This document shows positions 3,135-63,864 of a DNA stretch of 64,000 nt, in pieces. The stretch covers positions 11,157 to 75,156 of the forward strand of contig JAGASS010000025.1 of the NCBI GenBank assembly GCA_017621655.1, written 5' to 3'. Under the pieces are notes generated by a model that saw only the letters and a list, made by a program, of their open reading frames with translations, was not told the origin of the DNA and made no database searches. How positions within the stretch are numbered: position 1 is the stretch's first letter; each line of letters opens with the position of its first letter. The stretch is from Clostridia bacterium (lineage in GTDB: Bacteria; Bacillota; Clostridia; Oscillospirales; CAG-272). The position numbers and the translations under genes are program-made.

Positions 3135-3657
3135 GTTTTTCGCGGGCGAGCAATGCTCGCCCCTACAAAGGTATATTGAACGTGAATTCGTAGGGACAGG
3201 CAACCTCGGGAACCCCCAAAACTCGCGTTCGCTCGTTTCGGGGAACCCCTCACCTCGACTGTCCGCACGGGAACAATGTAACATCGTTTTTGCGCGGGGC
3301 GTCGAGGACGTCGCCCCCTACAAAGATGTGGCGAAAATTCGCTACGTTGTCTCGCCTTCCCCAGCGGGGGAAGGGGGACCGCAGACGCTGCGTCTGCGGT
3401 GGATGAGGTGTTCGGGAAAGATGTAACATTGTTTTTGTAACGGCGGGAGCAAGCCCCCGCCCTACGAAAACGTGACGAAACATCAGAACGTTGTCTTGCC
3501 TTCTCCAGTGGGAGGAAGGTAAGAGGTAAACAAGAGGCAGTGCCTCGGATGAGGTGTTCGGGAAAGATGTAACATTGTTTTTATGCGGGCGAGCAATGCT
3601 CGCCCCTACAAGAGAGTTTCAAGCGTTCCCGTAGGGGCGACCTGTGGTCGCCCGCCT
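3135..3657. repeat. REP/BIME-like composite repeat cluster R1 (about 2.5 tandem units of ~146 bp plus flanking hairpins)
   Basis: Six GC hairpins each abut CTAC or GTAG: GGGCGAGCAATGCTCGCCC-CTAC (twice), GTAG-GGACAGG...CTGTCC, GGGGCGTCGAGGACGTCGCCCC-CTAC, GGCGGGAGCAAGCCCCCGCC-CTAC and GTAG-GGGCGACCTGTGGTCGCCC. The conserved ATGTAACATYGTTTTT motif recurs at 3276, 3421 and 3567. Confidence 0.85.
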
Positions 3658-4699: not shown

Positions 4700-5014
4700 C
4701 CCTAGGGTGCGACGGCCACGTGAACCCCCAAAGCTCATTACATTCGCTTCGGGGAACCCCTACCTCGACGCCCCGTTATGAAAGAAAAGAAACATCGTTT
4801 ATTTTCGAGAGGGGAAACCCCTCCCCTACGAAAGAGACGCGCCACGTCGTCTTGCCTTCCCCAGCGGGGGAATGGTGCAAGAGGCGTTGCCTCGGTCGGT
4901 TGAGGTGTTCGGGAACAATGTAACATTGGTTTTATGCGGCGGGAGCAAGCCCCCACCCTACGAAAACGTGGCGAAGCTTCGCCGCGTTGTCTTACCTTCT
5001 CCCGCTGGAGAAGG
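4700..5014. repeat. REP/BIME-like composite repeat cluster R2
   Basis: Contains GAGGGGAAACCCCTCCCC-CTAC, GGCGGGAGCAAGCCCCCACC-CTAC, CCTTCCCCAGCGGGGGAA, GAGGCGTTGCCTC, TTGAGGTGTTCGGGAACAATGTAACAT and GTGGCGAAGCTTCGCCGCGTTGTCTTACCTTCTCCCGCTGGAGAAGG. Confidence 0.85.
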
Positions 5015-7858: not shown

Positions 7859-7871
7859 TGTTTTTTAATTG

Positions 7872-8286
7872 ATGTAACATTGTTTTCGCACGGGAGGGGA
7901 GACCCCTCCCCTACAAAGGTATATTGAACGTGAATTTGTAGGGCGGGGGCTTGCTCCCGCCGTTCCAAAGAAAAGTAACATCGTTCCCACGCGGGCGAGC
8001 AATGCTCGCCCCTACAAGAAAATTCCAAACGCCCTTGTAGGGGCGACCATTGGTCGCCCGTTTTACGAGAGGGGAAACCCCTCCCCTACCGAGGGTAGAT
8101 CGAACGTCGATTTGTAGGGGGCGACGTCCTCGACGCCCCGTTTGGTCGTAAAGTAACACCGTTTTTGCGCGGCGGGAGCAAGCCCCCGCCCTACAAACAC
8201 GTGCCGAGGCATCGCCGCGTTGTTTGTCTTCCCCTCAGGGGAATGGTGCAAGGTGGCAGAGCAACGGACGGATAGGTGTTCGGATG
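7872..8286. repeat. REP/BIME-like composite repeat cluster R3
   Basis: Seven GTAG/CTAC-abutted hairpins, including two head-to-head pairs (hairpin-CTAC, 23-24 nt, GTAG-hairpin). The cluster ends with GTGCCGAGGCATCGCCGCGTTGT...CTTCCCCTCAGGGGAA...GGATAGGTGTTCGG. Confidence 0.85.
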
Positions 8287-10179: not shown

Positions 10180-10487
10180 CATTGTTCCCAAGCGGACAGT
10201 CGAGGTAGGGGTTCCCCGAAACGAGCGAACGCGAGTTTTGGGGGTTCCCGAGGTTGCCTGTCCCTACAAAGACGTGCCGAAGCATTGGGGCGTTATCTTA
10301 CCTTCTCCAGCGGGAGAAGGGTGTCTAAGAGGTAAACCTCAGACGGATGAGGTGTTCTGAATGGAAGCTAACTAATTTGAACTATAATCAGCTTTTTCAT
10401 CTGACACCTCATCCGCCTCGTTACACTCGGCACCTTCTCCCGCTGGAGAAGGTAAAATAATGCGGCGAAGCATTGCCGCGTTTCGCC
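10180..10487. repeat. REP/BIME-like composite repeat cluster R4
   Basis: A long GGACAG...CTGTCC-CTAC hairpin carries the nested GGGGTTCCCC insert. It is followed by an inverted pair GGATGAGGTGT ... ACACCTCATCC, each flanked by CCTTCTCC..GGAGAAGG hairpins. Confidence 0.85.
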
Positions 10488-13484: not shown

Positions 13485-13619
13485 GCGCCACGTTCATTAC
13501 CTTCTCCTGAGGGAGAAGGGGGACCGCAGGCGGAACGCCTGTGGTGGATGAGGAGTAAGTTCACTTATTCGACACCTCATCCGAGGTTTACCTCTTACCT
13601 TCACCCCGCTGGGGAAGGT
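13485..13619. repeat. palindromic composite repeat R5
   Basis: CCTTCTCCTGAGGGAGAAGG, CCGCAGGCGGAACGCCTGTGG, GGATGAGGAG, an 18-nt centre, ACACCTCATCC, GAGGTTTACCTC and CCTTCACCCCGCTGGGGAAGG. Confidence 0.8.
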
Positions 13620-15799: not shown

Positions 15800-16030
15800 G
15801 GACGCCTCATCCGCCACCTTCGGTGGTCTCCCTCTCAGTCGGCTTCGCCGCCAGCTCCCCCAAAGGGGGAGCCTCAAGAACGCCCCGATGCTTCGCCACG
15901 TTTTCGTAGGGCGGGGGCTTGCTCCCGCCGCATAAAAACAATGTTACATTGTTTTGTAACACCTCATCCGTCAACCTGCGGTTGACACCTTCTCCCACTG
16001 GAGAAGGTAAGACAACGTGGCGAAGCTTCC
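15800..16030. repeat. REP/BIME-like composite repeat cluster R6
   Basis: GCCTCATCC-CCACCTTCGGTGG, GCTCCCCCAAAGGGGGAGC, GTAG-GGCGGGGGCTTGCTCCCGCC, AAAAACAATGTTACAT, ACACCTCATCC-GTCAACCTGCGGTTGAC, CCTTCTCCCACTGGAGAAGG and GTGGCGAAGCTTC. Confidence 0.85.
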
Positions 16031-17878: not shown

Positions 17879-18080
17879 TTGTAGGGGGCGACAACCTCGG
17901 GAACCCCAAAAACTCGCTTCACTCGTTTTAGGGAACCCCTAACCTAGACGCCCCGTTTCAAACGTAATGTATCTTGTTTGATAGAGACATTTCAAACTTT
18001 CAATAGAGAAGTACGTTCAAGAAAAATATAAACGTTTATTTCGGGGCGCCGAGGACGTCGCCCCCTACAATGACGTGGTA
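17879..18080. repeat. REP pair R7, heads outward, bracketing ~85 bp of AT-rich DNA
   Basis: GTAG-GGGGCGAC...(nested ~55 nt insert)...GACGCCCC at 17881-17954, and GGGGCGCCGAGGACGTCGCCCC-CTAC at about 18042-18069. Confidence 0.8.
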
Positions 18081-22059: not shown

Positions 22060-22262
22060 CGTTGTTTGCCTTCTCCTGAGGGAGAAGGGGGACCACGAAG
22101 TGGTGGATGAGGAGTAATCTCACGATATAGACACAAAAGGAATCGTTAAAGCTCATTACATTTGCTTTTATATACTCTTTGACACCTCATCCGAGGCACT
22201 GCCTCTTGTTTACCTCTTACCTTCATCTCGCTGGAGAAGGCAAAGTAAAATGCCGAAGCTTT
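22060..22262. repeat. palindromic composite repeat R9, located between uxuA and the SDR gene
   Basis: CCTTCTCCTGAGGGAGAAGG, CCACGAAGTGGTGG, GGATGAGGAG, a ~65-nt centre, ACACCTCATCC, GAGGCACTGCCTC and CCTTCATCTCGCTGGAGAAGG. Confidence 0.8.
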
Positions 22263-24703: not shown

Positions 24704-24780
24704 GGCGGAGTAGCTCAGTTGGCTAGAGCAACCGGTTCATACCCGGTAGGTCATGGGTTCAAGTCCAATCTCCGCTACCA
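24704..24780 (+). tRNA. tRNA-Met (anticodon CAT; could alternatively be a lysidine-modified Ile2)
   Basis: Folded by hand: acceptor GGCGGAG/CTCCGCT, D arm GCTC..GAGC, anticodon stem ACCGG/CCGGT with loop TTCATAC, a TTCAAGT T-loop and an encoded CCA. There is one G-A mismatch in the T stem. Confidence 0.85.
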
Positions 24781-24855
24781 GGCCCGTTGGTCAAGCGGCT
24801 AAGACACCGCCCTTTCACGGCGGTAACACGAGTTCGATTCTCGTACGGGTCACCA
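24781..24855 (+). tRNA. tRNA-Glu (anticodon TTC)
   Basis: Acceptor GGCCCGT/ACGGGTC, anticodon stem CCGCC/GGCGG with loop CTTTCAC, a TTCGATT T-loop and an encoded CCA. It starts on the base immediately after the CCA of tRNA-Met. Confidence 0.9.
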
Positions 24856-24858
24856 AAA

Positions 24859-24896
24859 TGAAAAGAGGGATGCAAAGCATCCCTCTTTTCATTTTG
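24859..24896 (+). terminator. rho-independent terminator after the tRNA pair
   Basis: GAAAAGAGGGATGC-AAA-GCATCCCTCTTTTC followed by ATTTTG. Confidence 0.8.
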
Positions 24897-24949: not shown

Positions 24950-25132
24950 GAAAGCACGACGTCGTGTTCGGGAACAATGTAACATCGTTTTTGCGCGGGG
25001 CGTCGAGGACGTCGCCCCCTACAAAGATGTGGCGAAAATTCGCCACGTTGTCTCGCCTTCCCCTCAGGGGGGAAGGTAAGAGGTAAACAAGAGGCAGTGC
25101 CTCGGATGAGGTGTTCGGGAACAATGTAACAT
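24950..25132. repeat. REP/BIME-like composite repeat R10 (one full unit)
   Basis: Near-identical to parts of two different R1 units. See the finding at 24950-25132. Confidence 0.9.
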
Positions 25133-36502: not shown

Positions 36503-37306
36503 TTACTTTATCGGCTGACCCGCCTTGCGGTGATGTCTTGCCTTGTAGGATGCAGGGAGAAACGCCGCGATGACGGGCTTTAGCGTCATCAGCTTATACT
36601 TGAACGGCGCGTTCGTTTCCTTATAATATTTAAGATAGACCTTGCGAATACCGAGCGCCGCCTTGACGGTGCGTTTTTTGTAATCGGAAATACTTTCCTG
36701 ATAGAGATAAAGCGGATCGGGAAGATTCACGCCCTTGTATCCTGCGATCGCAAAGCGGAACCACAGGTCAAGATCCTCGCATCTCATCGTCTCGGGGGAA
36801 ACTCGGTAACCGCCGAGCGCGTCAAGGACGCTTTTGCGCATCATTATCGTCGGATGAGCAAAGGGTGAAGACGTAAGGAAAACGCTTTTTATCGGATCGC
36901 ATTCGTAAATGCGGTTGTAGAGAAGCTTGTCCCCGTCTTTTATGGTAAGGGAGGTGCCGAGGAGGTCAATTTCCTGATGAGCGTCAAGAAAAGCGACCTG
37001 CTTTTCAAAGCGCTCGGGGCAGGAAAGATCGTCGGCGTCCATTCTCGCGATATATTCGCCCTCCGCAACAGATAGACAGTGATTGAGCGAATACGCAAGG
37101 CGCATGTTTTTCTCGTTTTTCAGCACCTTAATATTAGAGTGCTTCTCGGCATAAGCAAGCGCGAGCGCGTAAGTGCCGTCAGTTGAGCCGTCGTCACACA
37201 TTATAAGCTCATAGTCGGTGTAGGTCTGCGCGAGGATCGACTCGATAGCCGCGCCGAGCGTCGCTTCACAGTTATATATACCCATTATAACCGAGATCTT
37301 ACTCAT
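36503..37306 (-). CDS. family 2 glycosyltransferase
   Basis: MSKISVIMGIYNCEATLGAAIESILAQTYTDYELIMCDDGSTDGT at the trimmed start 37306. The track extension runs into repeat R14. Confidence 0.85.
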   Translation of the reverse strand: MSKISVIMGIYNCEATLGAAIESILAQTYTDYELIMCDDGSTDGTYALALAYAEKHSNIKVLKNEKNMRLAYSLNHCLSVAEGEYIARMDADDLSCPERFEKQVAFLDAHQEIDLLGTSLTIKDGDKLLYNRIYECDPIKSVFLTSSPFAHPTIMMRKSVLDALGGYRVSPETMRCEDLDLWFRFAIAGYKGVNLPDPLYLYQESISDYKKRTVKAALGIRKVYLKYYKETNAPFKYKLMTLKPVIAAFLPASYKARHHRKAGQPIK

Positions 37307-37402
37307 TTCCCCACGCCTTTCAAATAATAATAAATATATAATAACAGAATAAGGATGAAAAGTCAATGTTTTTGTTGTGTTATGCGTTGCGGTCAGGCGT
37401 TC

Positions 37403-37785
37403 CCGTAGGGGCGCCCCTACGAGGACGTTCAAAATTCTCTTGTAGGGGCGAGCATTGCTCGCCCGTTCGGTCGTAAAGTAACATCGTTTTTTGCGGGGCG
37501 TCGAGGACGTCGCCCCCTACAATAACGTGGCGAAGCTTCTAGACGCTGTCTTGCCTTCCCCAGCGGGGGAAGGTGTCGGCGAAGCCGACGGATGAGGTGT
37601 TCGGGTGTGATGTAACATTGTTTTTGTAACGGCGGGAGCGCGTGGGGTTCCCCGATGCGAATGAAATGAGCTTTGGGGGTTCCGAGCATACCCCCGCCCT
37701 ACGGTGCGTCGAGGACGTCGCACCCTACAAAGACGCGGCGAAGCTTCGACATGCTATTTTGCCCTCTCCAAGGGGAAGGCAAGAC
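37403..37785. repeat. REP/BIME-like composite repeat cluster R14
   Basis: GTAGGGGCGCCCCTAC, GTAG-GGGCGAGCATTGCTCGCCC, GGGGCGTCGAGGACGTCGCCCC-CTAC, the scaffold with GTCGGCGAAGCCGAC, GGCGGG..(nested insert)..CCCGCC-CTAC and GGTGCGTCGAGGACGTCGCACC-CTAC. Confidence 0.85.
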
Positions 37786-44109: not shown

Positions 44110-44335
44110 GCGGCAAAGCTTCGGAATGTTGCTATGGCTCCCTCCGGGAGGGAGCTGTCACCGAAGGTGACTGAAGGAGCACGCGCGGGAACGATGTTAC
44201 TTTTCTTTGGAACGGCGGGAGCAAGCCCCCGCCCTACACGGCGGCGTTGCCGCCTACACCTCATCCGTCAACCTGCGGTTGACACCTTCCCCCGCTGGGG
44301 AAGGTAGACAACGTGGCAAAGCTTTTCGTCGCCTT
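44110..44335. repeat. REP/BIME-like composite repeat cluster R15
   Basis: CTCCCTCCGGGAGGGAG, the shared 31-nt GTCACCGAAGGTGAC block, GGCGGGAGCAAGCCCCCGCC-CTAC, ACACCTCATCC-GTCAACCTGCGGTTGAC, CCTTCCCCCGCTGGGGAAGG and GTGGCAAAGCTTT. Confidence 0.85.
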
Positions 44336-44415: not shown

Positions 44416-45279
44416 TTATTTATGGTCGGCAAGAGCCATTATTTCTTCCTCCGTCATTTCTGAAAGAAGAAAACGGGCTCCGTCGAATCTGCAGATTTTT
44501 TCCTTTGGTATAAGCTCCAGAAACTCGGAATATTCAACATCGCAAACGACCTTTCCGTCGGCAGCGATAATTACCGACCACTTTTTGCATTCGATCGGTC
44601 TTCCCGTTGAATAATCAATAGCTCCAAGCGGAACGGTAGGTTTGTTCGGAAAAATGGCAACGAGATCGCTCATCAGCATATATTTTCCGCATATTCCGCC
44701 TTCTTCATAATAAAAACGAGGGCTTTCGAAGCACGCATCAACGGTCTGATTTTTATGCAACCACCACGCGTAATATTCGGGGTCGCCCAAGAAGCGTCTT
44801 GCTTCCTCCATCCCCATAGTGAGAGGCCACATAGCGGAATATAGCACAAGGTCCCCGTGCTCCCCGTTAATAACACCGGAGGAAATTTGATTCAGTATGT
44901 CGTTATTGACCTCGACCCTCCGTTCAAGATCGGAAAGAAAATCGGACAAGCTCACTTTACTGCCGTCGACAGTCAAGCTTCCGCCCCAGTGATTCACCAT
45001 TCTTTCGACAGCGGAATAAAAATCCTTTATTTCATATTTCGTCGACGGTATCGGAAGCCGAAGCGCGATCTCCTTCGTTTCGTCGGGCTTCCAGCTCACG
45101 CTGAATCCCCTTCCGACACAGTATGGATTATACGCAATGAATTCTCCGCCGCCCAGCTTACCCGTTTCAAGCCGTTCTCCTTCGTAGATCCCGTATTGCA
45201 GATCGTCACCCAAAATTACCCTGAGGGGCATGCTTTTGTTGCCAAACAGTTTTTGCTTTATTATTACGTCAATAGCCAT
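44416..45279 (-). CDS. hypothetical protein (287 aa)
   Basis: Long ORF with normal composition and no overlapping alternative. Family not recognised with confidence. Confidence 0.65.
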   Translation of the reverse strand: MAIDVIIKQKLFGNKSMPLRVILGDDLQYGIYEGERLETGKLGGGEFIAYNPYCVGRGFSVSWKPDETKEIALRLPIPSTKYEIKDFYSAVERMVNHWGGSLTVDGSKVSLSDFLSDLERRVEVNNDILNQISSGVINGEHGDLVLYSAMWPLTMGMEEARRFLGDPEYYAWWLHKNQTVDACFESPRFYYEEGGICGKYMLMSDLVAIFPNKPTVPLGAIDYSTGRPIECKKWSVIIAADGKVVCDVEYSEFLELIPKEKICRFDGARFLLSEMTEEEIMALADHK

Positions 45280-51789: not shown

Positions 51790-53256
51790 TTATTTTCCTT
51801 TTTTTGAAGATTTTAAGATACTGGCAATTACGTTTACGCATTTATCCTTAATATAAATAAACTCTTTATTTTTTGTCACAAGCGATAGCGTCACGTACAC
51901 AACAATACCAACAACTATTTGCAACATCAATGTAAGTGCATTGCCCAAGGGAAGAAGCTGCACAGCATACGCGCAAATAAACATGATAACCGCCATGCCT
52001 ACATTGGGCATAATATCAGCCATTTGCTCCTTAACACTATACTTCAACAATTTTGATGTTGGATATGCGTTAACGACAACGAAGAACGTTGCGGTTAAAG
52101 CCATAGCCGCCACGATTGCCTCCACGCTTATCCACATAACAATAACTAACACCACAAGCTCTATAGCTTTTTTCACCAATTCCAAGCGCAAGTACACATC
52201 GCCTCTTCCTATTGCTTTTATTGCTTGCATATTTGCACCATGTATGGGTTGAAACAAGTGCATCACGCATATCATTTGCAAGAACGGAACACAGGGAAGC
52301 CATTTGTCTGTCAAGACTAAGCTCACAAATGGCGTTGCAACCGCAGCAAAGCCAAGCATGACAGGAGCCATTACATAAGAAGAAAAGCGAACTGAATTTT
52401 TTATCGTCCGTTTCACACTGGAAATGTCATTTTGCTCATTTGCCATTTTGGGGTATAGCACAGCTCCAATAGAAACGGTAATATTTGTCATAATCAAATC
52501 AGGGAAGCGCTTGCCCTTATCATAATACGCCAAATCCGCCGATGAGTACAACTTGCCGATTATCAATGCACGAGCTTCTTGATATCCGGTACACAAAAGA
52601 TTCACGCCCAAAACTCGTGCGCCAAATGGAAATAGTCTGCGCAGCGATTCAAAAGAAAAAAGCAGTCGCGGCATTTTTTTCAATGTCAAGATAAGCACAA
52701 ATGTGCTGATAAGCGTGCTTGACAAATATTGTGCGACCAAAGCCCATACACCAAATCCGCTATATGCCATCGCAACGCCAATAATTCCTGATATAATAGT
52801 TCCGCTCAGTGTCGACAAGAAAAATTTACGGAACATCATTTTCTTTGAAACATATGCCTGCTGAATGGAATTAACGGCGGCGAGCGGTATTCTCAATGAC
52901 AATACGCGCAAAGCGGGGACAAGGATACCATAACCATAACCGCAAAATTTTGCTATACAAGGTGCAGCAAAAAACAAGAGTACGTATAATGCGGCAGAAA
53001 ACGCCAAATTAAAGTACAAAACAGAACAGTAATCCAAAGCACTCGCATCTTTTTTTTGTATCAACGCGCTCCCAAAGCCGTCACTAACAAACACGTTTGC
53101 AATGGTGATAAAAACCATAACAATAGCAACCACGCCATAATCTTCGGGGGATAGTAAACGCGCTAATACAATAGACACAACAAGGGAAACAAATTGCGCA
53201 GATATTCTCTCGGCAAATTTCCAAAACAAATTATTGAGTAGGCCGTTTTTTTGCAA
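51790..53256 (-). CDS. wzx: Wzx-type oligosaccharide flippase (MOP superfamily)
   Basis: About 12-14 TM helices. Start trimmed to TTG 53256, which has AAGGGGG 7 nt upstream. The track start at 53349 has no RBS. Confidence 0.8.
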   Translation of the reverse strand: MQKNGLLNNLFWKFAERISAQFVSLVVSIVLARLLSPEDYGVVAIVMVFITIANVFVSDGFGSALIQKKDASALDYCSVLYFNLAFSAALYVLLFFAAPCIAKFCGYGYGILVPALRVLSLRIPLAAVNSIQQAYVSKKMMFRKFFLSTLSGTIISGIIGVAMAYSGFGVWALVAQYLSSTLISTFVLILTLKKMPRLLFSFESLRRLFPFGARVLGVNLLCTGYQEARALIIGKLYSSADLAYYDKGKRFPDLIMTNITVSIGAVLYPKMANEQNDISSVKRTIKNSVRFSSYVMAPVMLGFAAVATPFVSLVLTDKWLPCVPFLQMICVMHLFQPIHGANMQAIKAIGRGDVYLRLELVKKAIELVVLVIVMWISVEAIVAAMALTATFFVVVNAYPTSKLLKYSVKEQMADIMPNVGMAVIMFICAYAVQLLPLGNALTLMLQIVVGIVVYVTLSLVTKNKEFIYIKDKCVNVIASILKSSKKGK

Positions 53257-53385
53257 AACCACACCCCCTTTTGCGTATTTAAGTAGTAATTCAGATTCAA
53301 AGCAACACCGAGCGTAACGCCCAACAATTTGAACCGTCTCTAACCCCAAGCTGCCGATCTATTCCAACAGCCATTGGAAGCGGAA

Positions 53386-54606
53386 TCACAGACGATACGT
53401 TCCCGGCAGATCGCAACATTTGCGCGTATCGAACACGATCTTGCCCTGAAGCTTGTCCATATTCTCCTTGAGGTGATTATGGTTAACCATAATTACAACA
53501 AGGTCTGTGTCCTCAAGGAACTTTTCGAAATCGTGATACTGATTCGGGACGATGTCCTTTTCAAAGAAAGGATCGTACGACTTTATTGGAGGCGCCAAAT
53601 GTCTTTCCTGGCTTTCGAGAAGCTGAATAGTCGGCGATTCACGGGGGTCGTCAACGTTTTCCTTATAGGAAAGTCCGTAAAGACCGACTCTTGAGATATC
53701 GGTGATTCCGTTTTCCTTCATTATCTCGTATATACGGTTGAGAACGAAATCAGGCATACCGTCATTCGTCTTCATCGACTCATCAATGACCTTCGCGAGA
53801 CTCGGATAGTCACCAACCAAAAACCAAGGGTCAACCGATATGCAATGTCCGCCAACGCCGGGTCCGGGCTGAAGAATATTTACTCTCGGGTGCATATTGC
53901 ATATCTTTATGATCTCGTAAACATCCATATTATCATGACGGCAGATCTTCGCGAGTTCGTTTGCAAATGCGATATTTACCGCGCGGAAGGTGTTTTCAAC
54001 AACCTTTGTCATCTCCGCCGTTCTGATGTCGGTAACAACGATCTCACCCTCGCAGAAGGAAGCGTAAAGTGCCTTGATCTTCTCGCCGACTGCCTTGTCG
54101 TCTGCACCAATGGTGCGGTTATTGTGAAGAAGCTCATACACCATATTTCCGGGAATAATGCGCTCCGGCGCGTGAACGAGGTTGATGTCTTTACCAATAA
54201 CAAAGCCGTTCTCCTCAATAACAGGACGAACGTACTTGTCAATAGTTCCGGGGGATACCGTAGATTCAATTACAACGGTCGCGCCCTTAGGGCAAACGCC
54301 CATGATAGTTTTAACGGCAGATACGACGTAACAAGCATCAACCTTTTTGCTGAACTTATCGTAAGGGGTCGGCACCGATACGATATAGGTGTCCGTCACC
54401 TGATATTCAGTTGTAAATTTGATACCCGACTTTACCGCCGCATCAAACAGCTCGTCAAGACCGTCCTCCTTAAAGGTTGTCTTTCCTGCGTTCAGCGTTG
54501 CAACAAGCTCCTTGTTGTAATCAGTTCCAACAACCTCTACTCCGTGCGACGCCATCATCAGCGCTGTCGGAAGACCTATATATCCAAGTCCTATTACGTT
54601 AATCAT
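53386..54606 (-). CDS. wecC: UDP-N-acetyl-D-mannosamine dehydrogenase
   Basis: MINVIGLGYIGLPTALMMASHG is an NAD fold with a UDPG/MGDP dehydrogenase layout. It pairs with wecB. Confidence 0.9.
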   Translation of the reverse strand: MINVIGLGYIGLPTALMMASHGVEVVGTDYNKELVATLNAGKTTFKEDGLDELFDAAVKSGIKFTTEYQVTDTYIVSVPTPYDKFSKKVDACYVVSAVKTIMGVCPKGATVVIESTVSPGTIDKYVRPVIEENGFVIGKDINLVHAPERIIPGNMVYELLHNNRTIGADDKAVGEKIKALYASFCEGEIVVTDIRTAEMTKVVENTFRAVNIAFANELAKICRHDNMDVYEIIKICNMHPRVNILQPGPGVGGHCISVDPWFLVGDYPSLAKVIDESMKTNDGMPDFVLNRIYEIMKENGITDISRVGLYGLSYKENVDDPRESPTIQLLESQERHLAPPIKSYDPFFEKDIVPNQYHDFEKFLEDTDLVVIMVNHNHLKENMDKLQGKIVFDTRKCCDLPGTYRL

Positions 54607-54731
54607 TCTATATTCCTCACAATTGTTATTTCGATTTCAAACGGCGTTTAGTCAATTCGTTCCGAATTAAAAGAATCAACCAACGCCTCAACGCCATCAT
54701 GCTATTTGATGGCAAACGCTATTTTGTTAAC

Positions 54732-55856
54732 TTAAAATCGTTTAACAAATTCCACCCAGCTTTTTGCCCATACGTCTTGCGAAAAGCTATGTTCAACAGT
54801 CTCTCGCGCTTTAGAAGCAAGGCGTTTTGACTTGTCCGGATTTTCAATTAAGCTGCACATAGCGTCATATAACTGTTGTTCATTGCCCGCATCCACTATA
54901 AGGCCGTTGTATCCGTTCAAAACAATATTTGTCATTCCGCCAACGTTCGTGCATATCACTGCGCAATTTGACGCCATTGCCTCAAGCAGAGACAGAGATG
55001 TACCTTCCGAACCAACGGTGGGAATGACCGCAATGTGCTTGTCCGCATGTATTTTCAAGCTATCTTCGCTTGCATACTTGGTAAACAATACATTGTTGTA
55101 TGCACGCAGCTTTTCTTTCATCCACGTTTCGTCCGGACCGCTTCCCGCAATCGTTATATGTATATTTGAGTATTTGTCCAATAGCATTTTAGCTACATTA
55201 GCAAACACTTTAGTCCCTCTGTATTCATATAGTCTTCTTGCAAAAATAATGCTTGTTATGCCATCGCTTTTGTTGCACTCAAGAGACAGGGCGGTATAGT
55301 TGGGTATCACGCTGATTTCGTTTTCCACAACATCCACCTGCGTCCTATACCAATTAAGAAAATTATAGTCTACGCAAATAAGACCATCTACTTTTTTTAT
55401 TCTGTTTATTAATGATTCAGAATGATGTACCCTGGCGACAATTCTTTTAAGATTCCAGCGTTTTTTCTTCTTCGGAATATCCCAAAAAATTCCATGTTGT
55501 ATAGCAACACTTTTCGTTAGTACTTTGCGTGGTATCATTATATCCGTAGCAAAAATTGTTAACGTCTCATCAACGTTCTTTGCTGTGCGGATAGAACGAT
55601 TGTAGATTTCCTGGTATCTCTTCTTGGGACTTTTTTTGTTCACGCAAAATCCAATTACTTGGCTATTATCCGACAGATCACAAACAAAATCCGCTTTTGA
55701 AAACTGAATAACTCGAACGACCAAACCGGCGTTTTCAAACACCTTAACAAGATCGGTTATATATGTCTGCACACCACCTATGGTCCTATTCATGTTTTCA
55801 TCTAAATACCCATGATATATTATATCCACATACTTAACCACGGTTTTGTCCTCCAA
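54732..55856 (-). CDS. glycosyltransferase, GT4 (group 1)
   Basis: C-terminal EGTSLSLLEAMASNCAVICTNVGG motif (EX7E region). Confidence 0.8.
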   Translation of the reverse strand: MEDKTVVKYVDIIYHGYLDENMNRTIGGVQTYITDLVKVFENAGLVVRVIQFSKADFVCDLSDNSQVIGFCVNKKSPKKRYQEIYNRSIRTAKNVDETLTIFATDIMIPRKVLTKSVAIQHGIFWDIPKKKKRWNLKRIVARVHHSESLINRIKKVDGLICVDYNFLNWYRTQVDVVENEISVIPNYTALSLECNKSDGITSIIFARRLYEYRGTKVFANVAKMLLDKYSNIHITIAGSGPDETWMKEKLRAYNNVLFTKYASEDSLKIHADKHIAVIPTVGSEGTSLSLLEAMASNCAVICTNVGGMTNIVLNGYNGLIVDAGNEQQLYDAMCSLIENPDKSKRLASKARETVEHSFSQDVWAKSWVEFVKRF

Positions 55857-55966
55857 CTCTGTTGTTGATTCGCGTGAGCAAAACAGCTCAAAACATTCAC
55901 CACGGCGCTTTCTCAGCGCCCCACTTGACTTCGTTTTTCGCCACTTGAATCACCTTGCTTTGTTTT

Positions 55967-57025
55967 TCATTTATTTAAAACAAATTTAATCGCATCCAAA
56001 AATCCGTTCGCCATATGATCAACGGTTCTGTTTTCATCGTAGTGCTTCTTAGCGTTTTCACCCATAGAAATATAACGTTCGGGGGTTTGAGCGCACTCCT
56101 TAATGACGTTCGTTATCTCATCAAATGAGTCGAGTAAAATGCCGCTTACGCCATTTTCGATATTCAATCTTTCTCCGCCCGTGATTGCGTCCTTGTGGGT
56201 AACAAAAGGAACGCCATATCCGAAAGACTTGAGAACCGAAAGCCCCGCTTGATCGGGCGAAATGCATACGATAGCGCGCGAAAAGTATTCCGAAAGCAAC
56301 TTTTCATCATATATTGCTCCGGGCAACAGGATCTGATTTTCAAGTCCCTTTTCCGCAACCCATTTTCTAGCCGGCTCTGCGTCATCGCCATCGCCGATAA
56401 TAACCATTTGAGGCAAGTCTTCGCATTCAGAATATGCCTTTTGATAACACTCCAGCAATTCGAATATTTTTTTTGCTCTATACAACGAACCGACAAACAA
56501 AATCGTGTTTCGCTCGCATTCCGTGATAGGCAACACTCTTACTGTATTATTCGCCACAAAAAGCTTTTCTGCATGAACTCCCATTTTTGAATACTTTTCA
56601 ACGGGATACGATGAATAGAAGAGCGCCGCATCTGCACGATCAATAATGTGTTTTAATTTTTCAGCCGTTTTGGGAATCGAATCAAATCTCGTATTGTATC
56701 CCGCAGCAACTCCTATGCCCCAGAATATTACTTTGGTTTTTCCTCTTAATCCGCACAACAAATGAGTGGAAAGATATGAGCGATTAAGCATCATAATCGT
56801 AACATCGAATTTTCTCGATAAACGGACAATGCTTTTTTTGTGGACCGTAAGCTTTTTCAAAACTGTGAACACTTCGATCTTTTTAGTTTCAAACTCCGCG
56901 TCCGACGGCACGTCACCCTTATCATAAACAACAGTCAGATCGACGTGTTTAGCCAACGCATTAAATATTGGAACTCTATAATGAGGAATTACGGACTGTA
57001 TTATAAGAACCTTCTTTTTTTGCAT
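55967..57025 (-). CDS. glycosyltransferase, GT4 (group 1)
   Basis: GT-B layout with GLSVLKSFGYGVPFVTHKDAITGGE in the C-terminal half. Confidence 0.8.
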   Translation of the reverse strand: MQKKKVLIIQSVIPHYRVPIFNALAKHVDLTVVYDKGDVPSDAEFETKKIEVFTVLKKLTVHKKSIVRLSRKFDVTIMMLNRSYLSTHLLCGLRGKTKVIFWGIGVAAGYNTRFDSIPKTAEKLKHIIDRADAALFYSSYPVEKYSKMGVHAEKLFVANNTVRVLPITECERNTILFVGSLYRAKKIFELLECYQKAYSECEDLPQMVIIGDGDDAEPARKWVAEKGLENQILLPGAIYDEKLLSEYFSRAIVCISPDQAGLSVLKSFGYGVPFVTHKDAITGGERLNIENGVSGILLDSFDEITNVIKECAQTPERYISMGENAKKHYDENRTVDHMANGFLDAIKFVLNK

Positions 57026-57028
57026 TTT

Positions 57029-58252
57029 TCACTTCCCCTTGCAAATTGAATCGAACAAATCAACATATCTGTTGAAGCATTTTGTGTTGTCGAAATCTTT
57101 CGATCTTTGCAAACAAGCATTTTGGGGAAAAACATCGTCTTGCGTTATACGGATTATTTCGCGCTCCATAGCATCAACATCGTTACATTCAACAACAAAT
57201 CCGGTCATGCGGTCCGGTATTTCCGGACTTCCACCGGTATTAAAAGTGAGAACGGGCGTGCCACAAGAAATTGATTCCATATTCACGGTGGGATAATTCT
57301 CTTCTCGCGTCGGGTTCACAAGAAGATCCGCCGCAGAATACGTTTCCGCCAGTTCAATTTGATCTGCGGTACGATGAATCGAAACAATATTGCTCGGCAA
57401 TTGAGCATCAGTATTTTCATCTGTTCCAACAAGGACAATTTGGTATAGAGCGGGGTCAAGACGCTTTGAAAGTTCGACAAAAACATCAAGCCCCTTTCTG
57501 TATCCCCAGCCAAACGCAACTCCAAGCAAAATATATTTAGCTTTTATATTATGCTTTTTTCTAAACTCAGTATCGCGCGGTTTAAACACCGACAAATCTA
57601 TTCCATTGTTAATTACCAAAACATCACGATCTTTAAAAAAAGATTCTTTTGCCAAATCCGCCAACCATTCAGACGGTGTAACAATCGTTAAGTCAGGAAT
57701 ATCAGAAAACCATTTTTTCTTTTTGCGATACATCGTCTTCGACGTATCAAAATACATTTTTGGATATACTTTCGGTTGCGGACACTTTTTGCATTCAGTT
57801 TTCCACTTTTCGCAACCGCTTATCGTGAAATACGGACAATGGCCCGTAAATGCCCAACAGTCATGAAGCGTCCAAACGACCTTGACACCGGATTTCTTTA
57901 TATATTTGAACAGTACCGGCAAATTCACGCAGAAGGCGTGCAAATTGTGTAAATGTATGATATCGGGAGAAAACTTTTTCAGGCGCTTCACGAGTTGGCG
58001 AGTACCAAACCACGACAACATACCGTTTGCTCCAAACAATGATCCGGCACAACGATGAATCAATTGCTCAAAACGGCTTCCCCACCAAAAATGATCGGGA
58101 ATGTTTTCGGGTTTATTCTTTTTGCCATTGGTAAAAAGAATCGGCGAGTATGTTTGCACAGTGTATCCTGCAGCTCGCGCGGTTTCGGCAATTTGAAGCA
58201 TGATCTTTCCTGTGCTTCCCGATGTTACCATGTTTATCTCTGCGATTTTCAT
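57029..58252 (-). CDS. glycosyltransferase, GT4 (group 1)
   Basis: N-terminal MKIAEINMVTSGSTGKIM and C-terminal REENYPTVNMESISCGTPVLTFNTGGSPE. Confidence 0.8.
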   Translation of the reverse strand: MKIAEINMVTSGSTGKIMLQIAETARAAGYTVQTYSPILFTNGKKNKPENIPDHFWWGSRFEQLIHRCAGSLFGANGMLSWFGTRQLVKRLKKFSPDIIHLHNLHAFCVNLPVLFKYIKKSGVKVVWTLHDCWAFTGHCPYFTISGCEKWKTECKKCPQPKVYPKMYFDTSKTMYRKKKKWFSDIPDLTIVTPSEWLADLAKESFFKDRDVLVINNGIDLSVFKPRDTEFRKKHNIKAKYILLGVAFGWGYRKGLDVFVELSKRLDPALYQIVLVGTDENTDAQLPSNIVSIHRTADQIELAETYSAADLLVNPTREENYPTVNMESISCGTPVLTFNTGGSPEIPDRMTGFVVECNDVDAMEREIIRITQDDVFPQNACLQRSKDFDNTKCFNRYVDLFDSICKGK

Positions 58253-58329
58253 TTTTATCCTTAGAAATAAGATATTTTACGAAATATAATTGTACCGCAT
58301 TAAAATGCGAGCAAACACTGCCGCATCGT

Positions 58330-59565
58330 TCAAAACTCTCGTTCTCTTCTCAGTTTAGCCGAACCGTATAGAATTACAATGATAACCCAAAACTCTTTTA
58401 GAGTCCAAAAGCTTCCTGAGAACATCAACTGAATAAATCCGCAGGGAACCAAGCACCAGAGCACTCGAGTAATCGCTGCATCACGTTTTGAAAATAGACT
58501 CTTAAAAAGATTATATATCAAAACAATGATGATAATCGGACCAATGAACAAACCAAAGTCGCAAATCAGTTCAAGGAACAGATTATGAAGGTAGGTTGCT
58601 CCTCCCGCGCGGCCAAAGGCATAAGTAATATATCGGTCGCCGAACGCTCCGTATCCGAAGGGATTGTGTTTTATTGCCTCCACAAACATACTTGAAAGCT
58701 CGGATCTACTCCTGTCTTCAAGCAGCGATCCTTCTATAAGTCTTTCAAGGAAGCGAGACTCAATACCGATGCTATCCAGAAGGGCATCTATCCCAAACAC
58801 AATGTTGTCATAAAACAACAGCGTAATTATCAATACTACTATCGATATTCCAAGCACCGTAATTCTTGTGCCGTTATTTGTTGTGGGATTAAAGAACACG
58901 ACTCTCAATACGATGTATATCAGGAATGCCAGAACGGCGCCTCGCGCTCCGCACATAAACATTGAGATGAATCCCAAAATGCCGCAGATTAAATAACGCT
59001 TCTTTTTTTCAAGAAAAAATCCCTCAAAACAAACACATATAGACGTAAGTATCGCATAAGAGAAAACCATGTATTGCAGCGTCTCACCCGCGACGAAAAC
59101 GCATTGCCACAAGGTGATCACTCCAAGGATAACGGTGAGCACCGACCACTTCAGCATACCGGCAAACAGTTTTCCGTAATCTTGGATAGAGCTTGCAATA
59201 AACATCATCGGGATGCAAAAGAACGTAGTTACGTTTATCGGGTTATATATCAGGTCGATCGGATCGCCGTATATATCCGGACGTATCTCGGGATAGATAA
59301 TATATGATACCAGCATCAGCACCAACAATAAACCGGAAAATAACAGAAGCTTATTGTTGTTGATACAATTTCGCAGAAATCCCCAAAGACTCAAGATCAG
59401 CATAAAAACATATACTGTTTCGGTAAGTCCCGTAGTATTCATACCCATGCCCAGCTGCAGAATACTGTTAATGAAATTATTAATGCTTGGCAAAAAGATC
59501 AACGCACAAAGCGCAAAAATCTCAAACGTATTTCTTTCATCTTTTCTGTGAAGATATATACGCAT
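58330..59565 (-). CDS. wzy: Wzy-type polymerase / O-antigen ligase-like membrane protein
   Basis: About 10-11 TM helices with one larger loop. It is AT-rich and lies in a Wzx-containing locus. Confidence 0.7.
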   Translation of the reverse strand: MRIYLHRKDERNTFEIFALCALIFLPSINNFINSILQLGMGMNTTGLTETVYVFMLILSLWGFLRNCINNNKLLLFSGLLLVLMLVSYIIYPEIRPDIYGDPIDLIYNPINVTTFFCIPMMFIASSIQDYGKLFAGMLKWSVLTVILGVITLWQCVFVAGETLQYMVFSYAILTSICVCFEGFFLEKKKRYLICGILGFISMFMCGARGAVLAFLIYIVLRVVFFNPTTNNGTRITVLGISIVVLIITLLFYDNIVFGIDALLDSIGIESRFLERLIEGSLLEDRSRSELSSMFVEAIKHNPFGYGAFGDRYITYAFGRAGGATYLHNLFLELICDFGLFIGPIIIIVLIYNLFKSLFSKRDAAITRVLWCLVPCGFIQLMFSGSFWTLKEFWVIIVILYGSAKLRREREF

Positions 59566-59655
59566 CGTAACATCCCCCTGTGGATTCTCAATACAAGAAG
59601 CTGTGTTTTACGCAAATGGATCTGCCATAAACAAAGCTTTTATTTTTCTTCGTAA

Positions 59656-60933
59656 TCATTCTTCGCAAATCACAGCTTTTATAGTTTCAAGCGCGCATTT
59701 GCTTCCATGATTCTTTATTGACAAAGCCCTAGCGTTGTCAACGATCTCACTATATCGTTTCGTATCATTTATAATTACCTTCAAGCGATCGCTCAAGTTG
59801 TGATCGTCGAAAATACAAAACGCAGCTTGGTTATCTGCCAGATATTTGATCGACGCAATCTCCTCGGGGCCATACGCGATAAGGCACGTGCCGCTTGCCA
59901 AGGAATCTGCGATTTTTGTCGACACAGAATACGCAACCGCCTTGCGTGATTCTCCATCAAAAGATTCTGTATGTATCAAAAACATGCTCTCGGCCATTAC
60001 GTTTTTGACTTCATCAGAAGAAATCTCGCCGTGGAAGTTGATTCCGTTTTCCGGCTTAAGATCCCTTAAAATTTCGGGGCGTTTTTCAGAAGAATAGACA
60101 TCAATACACGCACATGGAACTTCGCTTTCAATGCTTCTCAGCGCTCTGCCCAAGGAAATGAGCTGCTTATGTCTGTTGTACCCAACGTTACCTATATACG
60201 AAATTGCCCCTGTTTTCTTTTCGCAGGAAAGCGGTCCTTCAAACGACGCGGCGGTGTGCAACGTATGACACGGGACGCCAAACATCTTGAAATAATCCTC
60301 TTTCATTTTCTCGCATATAGTAAACATTCCCGCGCTTGCGGAAACGGTTTTCTTTACCTGCTTCATGAAAGCTTTATGAGTCAATCTGCCGCCAAATCTC
60401 GACTCATTTTTATTGTTTATATAGTAATCGTCCATGCAACATACGTAAAGCGGTATGTTTTTCATCTTTGCGATCTTACGCGCAACGATGTACATAAACG
60501 CATAATCTCCCGATGCAAAAAACACGGCATCGGGGTTAAACTCGTCGATCCATTTACGAAGCTTTTTGGTGTTCCACCTACCAAGTCGCCAAATTAGGTT
60601 GCGCGCAAAATATATAAAAGGTGTTCTTTTTCTTGCTTTTTGGTATATGGCTGCCGAAAGCCCCTCGTCAGTTCTTGAGGAAACTCTGTCTTTTTGAATA
60701 TCGCTTTTTCCGAAACGGGATCCACTGCGACGAGTGAATACCGATTTTACCATTTCCTTGTCCGTTACTCGATAGTAGTTCACGCAACAGCTATCGTCCG
60801 TTGGAACCTCTGAATGAATATAAAACTGTGCAACATTATCAGTTCCCCATTGTTCGAAATATGAAAGAAGTGTTTTTCCCATACTTGAAGTCTTGCAAAA
60901 CACGTTGTGACTTACCACAAGAACCTTTTTCAT
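59656..60933 (-). CDS. uncharacterised protein, possibly a GT-B-fold glycosyltransferase
   Basis: 425-aa ORF starting MKKVLVVSHNVF.., with length and context like a glycosyltransferase. No diagnostic motif recognised. Confidence 0.55.
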   Translation of the reverse strand: MKKVLVVSHNVFCKTSSMGKTLLSYFEQWGTDNVAQFYIHSEVPTDDSCCVNYYRVTDKEMVKSVFTRRSGSRFGKSDIQKDRVSSRTDEGLSAAIYQKARKRTPFIYFARNLIWRLGRWNTKKLRKWIDEFNPDAVFFASGDYAFMYIVARKIAKMKNIPLYVCCMDDYYINNKNESRFGGRLTHKAFMKQVKKTVSASAGMFTICEKMKEDYFKMFGVPCHTLHTAASFEGPLSCEKKTGAISYIGNVGYNRHKQLISLGRALRSIESEVPCACIDVYSSEKRPEILRDLKPENGINFHGEISSDEVKNVMAESMFLIHTESFDGESRKAVAYSVSTKIADSLASGTCLIAYGPEEIASIKYLADNQAAFCIFDDHNLSDRLKVIINDTKRYSEIVDNARALSIKNHGSKCALETIKAVICEE

Positions 60934-60999
60934 ATTATCTCCTTAAAAACGCAAATGTGCCTTCGCCATTTAGCAATGAAAATCGGCCGAGTCGATTAA

Positions 61000-61398
61000 T
61001 TATTGCCTGTTTTTTAAATTATGCTTTATTTGGGTAGTACTGATTTCGGGAGTTCTCGGAAGATATACAACTTCCGCGCCCTCTTCCTTCAAAAAATCAA
61101 ATTTTCCCTTCCAATCATCGCCCATAACGAACGTGTCTATGTGATATTCATGTATATCCGTACGCTTCTGTTCCCAACAGGTTTCGGGAATCACCAAGTC
61201 AACGTAACGTATTGATTCAAGCAACGCCTTACGCTGCTCATAAGAAAAATAACACTTTTTCTGTTTTTCGTTCCAGTTAAATTCATCTGTCGACAGGACG
61301 ACAACAAGATAATCCCCTAATGCTTTTGCACGTTTAAGAAGATTAATGTGTCCATAATGCAACAAATCAAACGTTCCGTATGTAATAACTCTCTTCAC
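61000..61398 (-). CDS. tagD: glycerol-3-phosphate cytidylyltransferase (copy 2)
   Basis: GTG 61398 with AAGGAG upstream. The product [41 protein letters not shown]... is a paralog of 45723-46118. Confidence 0.88.
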   Translation of the reverse strand: MKRVITYGTFDLLHYGHINLLKRAKALGDYLVVVLSTDEFNWNEKQKKCYFSYEQRKALLESIRYVDLVIPETCWEQKRTDIHEYHIDTFVMGDDWKGKFDFLKEEGAEVVYLPRTPEISTTQIKHNLKNRQ

Positions 61399-61402
61399 CT
61401 GA

Positions 61403-62221
61403 TTACTCCTTATACGATTTGTTCGCGTCAAAATTCAAAAAGTCGTGATGGGTAACCTGTTTTTCCTTTGGCGGAAGCTGCATATAGTTGCCGTACATGA
61501 GCGTCAAATATTTATCTGCGTCATGAGGACCGTATAGCTTAAGTCCCTCAAAATCGTAAAGCACGGGCTCTCCGAATACGGATCTTTCCATAATTTCGCG
61601 TTCTCTCCACGCTCCATACATATTTCCTATATATACAGCGTCGTCAAAGCATTTTTCGCGGCACAATGCGTCTACCTTTTTATAAGCCCAACGCCAACCG
61701 CACACAAATTCCGGAATACATCTTCCGAGCACGATTGCAGCATTTTTATACAAAGCTCTCTTCGGATTAATTGCACATGTTTTCGTGCTTATGTAATTAT
61801 TATATCTTTCGATTTTTTTGAAGTGCTTAAGTGCTTCCTCTTTTGTGTTGCCCGCACCATCCAGCGGAAATATATCAATGTACGCACCGCGACGAGTCTT
61901 ATACCTAGTGTTTTCCGTCAATGTCGTTTCGGTATCGTAAAACTTGCTAAACGAATAAACAAAATCCTTGTTTTCAAGCGGCGTTTCCAATACATACTTT
62001 GAAGTGTTGCTTGCTTTCATAAGATCAATCAGTTTATCATAATCAGCCCTTGGGAGTCCGACGTCAACATCATCGTCCCACGGTATAAAACCCTGATGCC
62101 GTACAGCACCAAGACATGTGCCGCCCAAAACGTAATATCGAATGTTATTTTTACAGCAAAAATCATGGAAATAGCTCATTATCTCAACGAGCTTGCTTTG
62201 TAATTCAGTCATTAAAAACAC
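61403..62221 (-). CDS. licD: LicD-family phosphotransferase
   Basis: YYVLGGTCLGAVRHQGFIPWDDDVDVGLPRADY is the LicD signature. Confidence 0.85.
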   Translation of the reverse strand: MFLMTELQSKLVEIMSYFHDFCCKNNIRYYVLGGTCLGAVRHQGFIPWDDDVDVGLPRADYDKLIDLMKASNTSKYVLETPLENKDFVYSFSKFYDTETTLTENTRYKTRRGAYIDIFPLDGAGNTKEEALKHFKKIERYNNYISTKTCAINPKRALYKNAAIVLGRCIPEFVCGWRWAYKKVDALCREKCFDDAVYIGNMYGAWREREIMERSVFGEPVLYDFEGLKLYGPHDADKYLTLMYGNYMQLPPKEKQVTHHDFLNFDANKSYKE

Positions 62222-63843: not shown

Positions 63844-63864
63844 AATATGTAAACCTCAAATTAC

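Follow-up and report, generated by a model that had tools for sequence, protein, structure and literature searches.

Intrastrand DNA triplexes of bacteria (BoxC/PIT/TMECO) have been sequence curiosities for 25 years. Repeats of this kind were described in E. coli and other Proteobacteria (Hoyne and Maher 2000; Holder et al. 2015, PMC4666352), and the consensus of TMECO was given as 5'-CCCTCNCCC-N3-6-GGGNGAGGG-N3-GGGNGAGGG, the isolated strand being a very stable triplex by circular dichroism and nuclear magnetic resonance (NMR) (PMC4666352). In the ITxF definition, such an element contains pyrimidine-rich, purine-rich and reverse-Hoogsteen (G/A/T) blocks with 6-15 positions and at most one mismatch; the loop limits in published searches were 1-6 nt (ITxF) and 0-10 nt (Hoyne et al.), and Firmicutes are unmentioned there (PMC4666352). 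Here, an intergenic repeat of about 50 bases was analyzed in a 64,000-nt stretch of DNA from a Clostridia bacterium of the CAG-272 lineage (GCA_017621655.1, contig JAGASS010000025.1, positions 11,157 to 75,156 of the forward strand), and this whole stretch is called the window below. The repeat is probably a class II purine-motif intrastrand-triplex DNA repeat, a hairpin-loop variant of BoxC/PIT/TMECO whose fold is likely to be under selection. Class II triplex repeats are already known, and the form with a hairpin as the second loop, widespread in gut Clostridia and phages, is new here.

The repeat and the triple covariation of its arms and tail

The complete copies showed the layout, 5' to 3', of CCTTCNCC, a loop, GGNGAAGG, a variable hairpin and GGATGAGG(T/A)GT. 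In the copy at 3355-3411 on the plus strand, which is flanked by the Spo0A, SpoIID and CdaA genes, sequence and fold together defined the pyrimidine (Y) 5' arm CCTTCCCC (3355-3362) and the purine (R) 3' arm GGGGAAGG (3367-3374) of hairpin 1 (H1), separated by loop 1, AGCG (3363-3366). They were followed by loop 2 (3375-3400), which consisted of the linker GGG and hairpin 2 (H2, 3378-3400; ACCGCAGACG-CTG-CGTCTGCGGT), and by the tail GGATGAGG(TGT) at 3401-3411, the proposed reverse-Hoogsteen third strand, which was unpaired in the DNA fold and mirrored the R arm at 7/8 positions, with A on G-C at position 6. Two types of loop 2 were distinguished: one T followed by the mini-hairpin H2 (type A), and GGG followed by H2 (type B). 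Folding with DNA parameters predicted both hairpins in each tested copy and left the 3' tail unpaired, with z-scores from -3.2 to -7.0.

Allowing for up to one mismatch, the 11-mer GGATGAGGTGT was matched 15 times in the window, against 0.57 expected; the strict architecture CCTTCNCC-N3-6-GGNGAAGG-N4-34-GGATGAGGTGT was matched 8 times and the loose one, GAAGG-N4-34-GGATGAGGNGT, 13 times, with 0 expected for each. The block order pyrimidine, purine, tail (CCTTCNCC ... GGNGAAGG ... GGATGAGG) was found in 13/13 window copies and in about 470 copies elsewhere. A sequence-only reading of the window had pointed to a CCTTCNCC/GGNGAAGG scaffold in which the second hairpin is replaced from copy to copy. 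This scaffold is real, with 13 complete copies in the window and none expected by chance, and every slot-2 stem that had been listed was found at its position. The match at 27570 arose by chance inside a gene. The anchor was strictly conserved over 8 nt (GGATGAGG), but its TTCGGG extension was lineage-specific, and nothing was conserved 3' of GGTGT in other genomes.

By listing all adjacent hairpin pairs in the fetched loci, sibling families with the same layout and other hairpin-1 sequences were recovered. In each family, the purine tail repeated the H1 purine arm in mirror order, reversed but not complemented: G stood on G-C, A on A-T was kept or swapped to T, and C in the purine arm was answered by T. 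Examples were CCTCTCCC/GGGAGAGG with the tail GGAGAGGG, CCTCCCTT/AAGGGAGG with GGAGGGAT, GCCCCCTT/AAGGGGGC with TGGGGGAT and GCTCCCCT/AGGGGAGC with TGAGGGGT, next to the family of the 3355 copy itself, CCTTCTCC/GGAGAAGG with GGATGAGG. Since this relation matches the code of the antiparallel purine-motif triple helix (G·G-C, A·A-T and T·A-T; PMC4666352), the element was read as an intrastrand-triplex motif. The T residues in the tail were systematic and position-specific, unlike random decay.

The sequence logic of this triple covariation was demonstrated with 51 unique two-hairpin elements, which were defined by architecture without using the tail, scan-pattern copies being excluded. The code was obeyed at 318/357 positions compared with 252.2±6.2 after permutation (10000 permutations, maximum 276, 0 reaching 318; z = 10.7). 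A direct-repeat reading, in which the tail would pair with the Y arm as an alternative Watson-Crick partner, was not supported (z = 3.4). The 51 elements comprised 23 distinct co-varying combinations of arm, arm and tail. What the sequence-only reading overlooked is that its anchor GGATGAGG, to judge by the mirror covariation, completes a purine-motif triplex with H1 as the third strand. Six cores occurred in two versions, one with the first pair C-G and a tail beginning with G, the other with the first pair G-C and a tail beginning with T; at position 1, C-G with tail G was counted 27 times, G-C with T 15 times and T-A with A twice. The triplet census gave 317/346 canonical purine-motif triplets, plus 15 T·C-G.

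In the family of the 3355 copy, the ninth pair was unconstrained by the scan. Here C-G was accompanied by G as tail base 9 in 32/33 copies, G-C by T in 3/3 and T-A by T in 6/7 (Fisher p = 6e-13). As a prospective test, viral contigs were scanned with the hairpin 1 of a sibling family alone (CCTCCCTT..AAGGGAGG), and the predicted tail was present at 8/8 positions in 50/60 copies with a perfect H2, in 48 of them as GGAGGGAT; the tail GGATGAGG was found in 0/60 of these copies. Among the elements of the finding's own family, 8/8 triplets were canonical in CCTTCTCC copies and 7/8 in CCTTCCCC copies, and the viral subfamilies had 9-10 triplets. Triple covariation of this kind is the strongest comparative evidence known to us for selection on such a DNA fold.

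The variable second hairpin

The census of slot 2 pooled the bacterial loci (at least 118) and the viral loci (at least 120). Among the matches listed, to which all counts of this census refer, 222 distinct slot-2 sequences were found, of which 7 were short (4-8 nt) and 215 long (12-34 nt). A hairpin with at least four Watson-Crick pairs was present in 195/215 long sequences, and H2 directly abutted the tail in 180/215. The triloops of H2 (n=108) were GNA in 76 cases and closed by a C-G pair in 101; the C-GNA-G mini-hairpin is an exceptionally stable DNA loop. Internal mismatches, read on the element strand, comprised 20 G.T/T.G, 3 A.C/C.A and 44 G.A, and some stems kept non-Watson-Crick features, namely G.A at the second pair or the tandem G.A of the class GCC-GA-GC..GC-GA-GGC.

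The persistence of pairing in more than 200 different stems, together with 20 G.T against 3 A.C, supported the earlier proposal that a hairpin replaced at a fixed slot marks a selected nucleic-acid structure. In the window, the slot of the copy at 10404-10452 paired poorly (GCC/GGC with tandem G.A). H2 may act as a connector only, which places the beginning of the tail at the foot of H1. Any sequence would then do provided that a tight hairpin persists, and such a role would explain why the sequence is unconstrained and pairing strictly kept, why H2 abuts the tail without a spacer and why the most compact loops are preferred.

One long AT-rich loop-2 hairpin, CAAAAATCT(T/C)TGATTTTTG, with a 19-nt stem, occurred in four triplex families in different genomes and phage contigs (L011, L104, L111, L231, L246, L250 and L283). 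Identical H2 modules across families were either swapped between families, or kept while the three triplex strands changed together. Separately, the H2 variant GTCAACC-GCA-GGTTGAC (15971-15987 and 44268-44284) has the complement AACCTGCGGTTG, which we take to be identical to 12 nt of the 16S rRNA 3' end (helix 45 region), followed by a CACCTYC-like stretch. This likeness was set aside as probably coincidental.

Distribution, window copies and orientation

In the scan of species-representative genomes, at least 118 loci were found, almost all in gut or rumen Clostridia metagenome-assembled genomes (MAGs). The labels among the matches listed were Oscillospiraceae, Acutalibacteraceae, Lachnospiraceae, Christensenellaceae, Ruminococcus and Eubacterium, with a few Selenomonadaceae. 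Carriers in culture include Pseudobutyrivibrio sp. OR37 (L062). At least 120 viral contigs with the element were found in IMG/VR, and the search of INPHARED matched only unannotated faecal phage contigs. Literal element sequences retrieved only unrelated primers from the full-text literature. In one locus (L001, 1045-1998), a 453-bp unit was repeated three times in tandem, and both the finding's family and the CCTCCCTT family were represented by a single element in each unit.

The boundaries of the unit were sharp. Solo units of 46-50 nt ended exactly with CCTTC and GGTGT, the 5' flank was WWG (G in 93%) and nothing was conserved after GGTGT; identical 46-nt units stood in unrelated flanks of different MAGs. 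Tail-to-tail inverted pairs combined type A with type B in 10/12 cases. The element was polymorphic between strains. At the UxuA locus, the pair was present in the window and three other strains, a lone hairpin 1 remained in two strains and other mosaic repeats were found in one more; the indel fell between two palindromic H1 copies, with no duplication. At the Spo0A locus, both copies of the finding were absent from some strains. No length polymorphism was seen when the SASA locus was compared at orthologous sites, and in the look-ups of orthologous sites the product of 36503-37432 had no record and 44416-45279 matched a single place.

In addition to 13 complete copies and two sibling elements, the window contained a decayed copy, a lone hairpin 1 and a hairpin with tail that lacked hairpin 1. 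Eight complete copies lay on the plus strand. Besides that at 3355-3411, the copy at 3499-3557 had a bulged hairpin 1 (CCTTCTCC/GGGAGGAAGG) and a loop 2 of T, AAGAGGTAAAC and the hairpin GAGGCAGTGCCTC, and was the second unit of a tandem mosaic of about 146 nt, and that at 4855-4908 was degenerate (R arm GGGGGAATGG, tail GGTTGAGG). The copies at 10301-10355, 13500-13556 and 22069-22115 were the left halves of tail-to-tail inverted pairs with spacers of 48, 15 and 66 nt; the second was of type B (GGG-ACC..GGT, tail GGATGAGGAGT) with 8/8 canonical triplets, and the third, also of type B (GGG-ACCAC-GAA-GTGGT), belonged to a pair that was absent from strains L121 and L122. The copy at 25056-25114 lay downstream of tRNA-Met and tRNA-Glu, and that at 37554-37600 was of type A (loop 2 T-GTCGGC-GAA-GCCGAC).

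Of the five complete copies on the minus strand, three were the right halves of these pairs: 10404-10452, with a weakly paired loop 2 of the tandem G.A class (GCC-GA-GTGTAAC-GA-GGC), 13572-13618, of type A (T-AA-GAGGTAAACCTC), and 22182-22240, of type A with a degenerate hairpin 1. The other two, 15959-16007 and 44256-44304, were of type A with the same loop 2, T-GTCAACC-GCA-GGTTGAC, and 8/8 triplets were canonical in the former. A decayed copy (CTTCCCCTCAGGGGAATGG ... GGATAGGTGT) was located at 8228-8279 on the plus strand, and a lone hairpin 1 (CCTTCTCCCGCTGGAGAAGG), without loop 2 or tail and like the 'scar' allele of the UxuA locus, at 4995-5014. The site at 15802-15827 (minus strand), previously counted among the copies, did carry the H2-like hairpin ACCACC-GAA-GGTGG and the tail GGATGAGGCGT, but it had no hairpin 1 of its own and was fused 3' of a sibling element at 15830-15872 on the same strand (GCTCCCCC-TTT-GGGGGAGC, TGG-CGGCGAAGCCG-AC, tail TGAGAGGG; 7/8 triplets canonical, with T on the first pair G-C). 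The other sibling element was at 44137-44179 on the plus strand (GCTCCCTC-CGG-GAGGGAGC, T-GTCACC-GAA-GGTGAC, tail TGAAGGAG; 7/8 canonical).

The window copies were situated in intergenic mosaics alongside other hairpin modules and GTAG-tagged GC-rich palindromes (...CCCTAC on one strand) that resembled repetitive extragenic palindromic (REP) sequences. These palindromes were located at 3141-3165, 3293-3322, 3441-3466, 3583-3612, 3622-3655, 7870-8200 and 37440-37520, and their stems varied (GGGCGAGCAATGCTCGCCC, GGCGGGAGCAAGCCCCCGCC, GGGGCGTCGAGGACGTCGCCCC, GAGGGGAAACCCCTC and GGGCGACCTGTGGTCGCCC), a second instance in which the tag is fixed and the hairpin replaceable. Tandem mosaics of about 146 nt interleaved the GTAG palindromes, the triplex elements and a GTAACATYGTTTTT motif. 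A hairpin module of about 50 nt, GGGGTTCCCCGA...TTTGGGGGTTCC, was nested in the loops of different REP-like palindromes, e.g. GGCGGGAGC[...]CCCCGCC, at 37630-37700, 3190-3262, 10196-10262 and 17880-17950 of the window and also in L125 and L129; the insertion of hairpins into loops seems to be a recurrent theme of these mosaics. The tRNA-Met (CAT) and tRNA-Glu (TTC) genes formed a tandem at 24704-24855, followed by a perfect long hairpin (24854-24896), a second hairpin and the element at 25056. The window comes from a Clostridia-type genome of a spore former. Its GC content was about 50%; from 52000 to 64000 it fell from about 0.50 to 0.41-0.43, with a strongly negative GC skew and all long open reading frames (ORFs) on the minus strand. 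The neighbouring genes there included Glyphos_transf and CTP_transf_like, and this region is probably a cluster for cell-envelope polysaccharide or teichoic acid that was acquired by horizontal transfer.

At the bacterial loci, the copies favoured the 3' ends of genes, with 14 convergent sites against 4 divergent ones where the background was about equal, and showed no clear strand preference (23 sense, 15 antisense). The four solo copies of the window between co-directional genes were all antisense. A strong bias was found in phages. Copies were co-oriented in 28/33 multi-copy contigs, where 12.9 were expected (L144-L263, IMG/VR), and the purine-tail strand was antisense to the genes in 13/14 contigs with known gene direction. 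The exception, L182, belonged to the CCTTCTCCCC subfamily and had a different 5' flank. The direction of phage genes was set by Pfam/PHROGs matches (tape-measure, portal, ParB-like and others), which replaced raw ORFs as these were unreliable in 60%-GC viral contigs. A ribosome-binding site with a start codon lay within about 35 nt beyond the Y arm, on the complementary strand, in 37/149 viral copies, compared with 1 beyond the tail on the element strand. The phage bias could mean that a stable fold can be borne only by whichever strand is less exposed as single-stranded DNA (ssDNA), or that the complementary strand has an RNA role.

Translation coupling, in which the element would offer stops in all three forward frames and its tail a Shine-Dalgarno-like GAGGTG, was rejected: the stops were not conserved in the window copies and ATG was not enriched after the tail. 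The consensus form with the common TTGA loop has TGA in all three frames of the element strand, and its complementary strand is open in all three. This accounts for the 'hypothetical proteins' that ORF callers draw across these repeats; 14/18 cases 'inside ORF' were antisense.

The proposed fold, its rivals and related systems

In the fold proposed here, CCTTCNCC and GGNGAAGG of a single strand would pair as a Watson-Crick hairpin of 8-10 bp (H1), loop 2 (T or GGG, then H2) would turn the strand back, and the tail GGATGAGG would enter the major groove, run antiparallel to the purine arm and make reverse-Hoogsteen triplets of the G·G-C, A·A-T and T·A-T kinds. The triplex would form transiently on DNA that becomes single-stranded in replication, transcription or recombination, and selection would act on the fold through a function for host or phage or through the propagation of the element itself. 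Triplex formation and selection on the fold are inferred from the sequences. Purine-motif triplexes were stated not to form in RNA, and pyrimidine-motif intrastrand triplexes can do so (PMC4666352); the folded form should for this reason be single-stranded DNA. The sequence-only reading had left open an RNA or an ssDNA element, and of the two the ssDNA version fits better, given this report, the G.T mismatches on the purine-tail strand, the poorer fit of a pyrimidine-motif reading of the complementary strand, the antisense position of the structured strand in 13/14 phage contigs and the lack of an Rfam match.

Several points weigh against the triplex fold as proposed. The commonest subfamily, CCTTCCCC, retains the non-canonical A·G-C triplet at position 6, and a purely 'neutral connector' does not explain the identical long H2 in four triplex families. 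For position 1, the T·C-G rule is assumed for the antiparallel motif, and no confirmation of it was found in the literature searched. The complementary strand could form a pyrimidine-motif triplex with 83% canonical triplets (287/346), and in phages this strand is the one found in mRNA, where ribosome-binding sites follow closely. The gene orientation at bacterial loci relies on crude ORF calls. The TMECO triplex was undetected by in vivo dimethyl sulfate footprinting (PMC4666352).

One rival explanation is a structured RNA, either a cis-regulatory or stabilizing mRNA element or a small RNA; on the complementary strand, two hairpins and a triple helix of the pyrimidine motif (U·A-U, C+·G-C) could form. 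In its favour, covariation preserves the two hairpins, the complementary strand corresponds to mRNA in 13/14 phage contigs and has a ribosome-binding site and start codon beyond the Y arm in 37/149 viral copies, and pyrimidine-motif intrastrand triplexes are possible in RNA (PMC4666352). We consider this explanation unlikely all the same, as the 287/346 triplets of its pyrimidine-motif reading are a worse fit than the 317/346 of the purine motif, the motif of the element strand is reported not to form in RNA and a triplex dominated by C+·G-C requires acidic pH (PMC4666352). Moreover, the T residues of the tail (position 4 and position 8 of GGATGAGG, and position 1 opposite G-C) would put a non-canonical A into the complementary third strand, the G.T mismatches (20 vs 3) are on the opposite strand, and the bacterial orientation is mixed (23 sense, 15 antisense, and convergent sites). 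When Rfam covariance models were run on the window at the gathering threshold and at E<=10, no family matched the element and only two tRNAs passed the threshold. A weak PrrB_RsmZ match spanned 3476-3613, one mosaic unit (25 bits vs a threshold of 44, E = 0.087), and could be counted in favour of an RNA; a CsrA/RsmZ-like sponge was nevertheless rejected on this single weak match, which was probably caused by repeated GGA-containing hairpins and is not considered meaningful. A mobile repeat of the REP/RAYT (REP-associated tyrosine transposase), IS200/IS605-end or miniature inverted-repeat transposable element (MITE) kind, whose hairpins and purine tract bind a transposase or nuclease and whose mirror symmetry does not reflect a triplex, would account for the identical 46-nt units in unrelated flanks of different MAGs, the presence or absence between strains, the mosaics with GTAG-tagged REP-like palindromes and the copies in at least 120 phage contigs, and the conserved WWG flank could be its target site. 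One sequence-reading protein, however, cannot account for 23 co-varying combinations that obey a triplex code; the element has no GTAG tag, terminal inverted repeats or target-site duplication, and no transposase or RAYT turned up in the 64-kb window and the loci of 2-15 kb, though no systematic search was made. Such a repeat is about as improbable as the RNA, and it becomes compatible with the triplex fold if the enzyme recognizes the folded triplex.

It is very improbable that the slot palindromes are a mutational by-product, made or homogenized by intrastrand template switching or gene conversion with the structure unselected. Symmetric internal expansion or contraction of stems (e.g. ACCAC-GAA-GTGGT vs ACCGCAGGCG-GAA-CGCCTGTGGT), hairpin modules that nest within other hairpin loops of these mosaics and the same H2 in several families would be expected of such a process. 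Template switching, on the other hand, yields inverted repeats, so that the mirror symmetry of tail and R arm cannot come from it, and it would erase the 44 recurrent G.A mismatches and the asymmetry of G.T over A.C; the loops are also strongly biased to C-GNA-G. The template switching that had been suggested as an alternative for the replaced hairpins may at most aid hairpin turnover. Least probable of all is a G-quadruplex in place of the triplex: the R arm and tail do hold at least four GG or GGG runs, and quadruplex competition was considered for TMECO, where NMR showed a triplex and not a quadruplex (PMC4666352), but a quadruplex needs no pyrimidine arm and leaves the A/T covariation and the position-1 rule unexplained.

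With the ssDNA triplex preferred over these explanations, a bolder and doubtful extension is that the triplex and hairpin fold is a selected ssDNA signal for dedicated machinery, such as a nuclease or transposase that recognizes the structure and copies the element, a factor in priming or replication, or a system of phage-host conflict. If true, it would explain a fold conserved through dozens of co-varying families, its spread over Clostridia and phages and the strict co-orientation in phages, and this would be the first DNA triple helix with a biological relevance backed by evolutionary covariation. Apart from such machinery, the same triplex architecture is now found in gut Clostridia and their phages, a group of medical relevance that is quite unlike the earlier hosts. 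The Y arm, R arm and third strand shift together in at least 23 families, and compensatory changes are the type of evidence that established RNA secondary structures; they make the folding of a DNA triplex in vivo directly testable, and the strand bias in phages is a handle on the effect of the fold on replication or transcription. The element also explains spurious 'hypothetical proteins' and intergenic variability between assemblies and strains in these genomes.

Among other described systems, integron attC sites have conserved short flanks and a variable but paired centre and are read as folded ssDNA. The element shares these features by analogy only, and lacks the R''/R' core sites (RYYYAAC/GTTRRRY), the cassette organization and an integrase context. 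REP sequences and bacterial interspersed mosaic elements (BIMEs) are likewise short GC-rich intergenic hairpin repeats with mosaics, inverted pairs, a preference for gene 3' ends and strain variation, but the element has no GTAG/GTGG tag at the hairpin foot and combines two hairpins with a purine tail in mirror symmetry; neither Clostridia nor such an element was found in the REP/RAYT literature. It differs from MITEs in lacking terminal inverted repeats and target-site duplication. With H-DNA it shares the purine-tract mirror repeat and the purine-motif triplet code, whereas H-DNA needs no pyrimidine arm in cis; the co-varying pyrimidine arm on the same strand points to a single-strand fold.

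The closest match is BoxC/PIT/TMECO, with which the element shares the class II order on one strand (Y arm, loop, R arm, loop and reverse-Hoogsteen G/A/T tail), 8-10 triplets with at most one mismatch, and a G/C-rich, intergenic, multi-copy nature. Inverted tail-to-tail pairs mix two loop-2 types in both, always in TMECO (PMC4666352) and in 10/12 cases here, and both are unstable between strains, with partial deletion that leaves a hairpin and raised local variability (Holder et al., PMC4666352). The differences lie in the core (CCTTCNCC vs CCCTCNCCC), the many co-varying sibling families, the gut and rumen Clostridia hosts and the abundance in phage contigs, TMECO being reportedly unassociated with phages, plasmids or transposons (PMC4666352). 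Above all, loop 2 is T or GGG with a variable mini-hairpin of 9-33 nt rather than the 3 nt of TMECO. Under the ITxF loop rule, loop 1 (3-6 nt) falls within the limit and loop 2 exceeds it in 215/222 variants (12-34 nt), so that published triplex finders miss the Clostridia form because its second loop is a hairpin beyond their limits. The TMECO consensus had 0 matches in the window, and TMECO-like cores were found in a few viral loci only, where they carried a 3-nt or a hairpin loop 2; relatives with a 4-5 nt loop 2 also exist. Through these short-loop relatives and the cores with both forms of loop 2, the Clostridia variant is continuous with the known triplex class.

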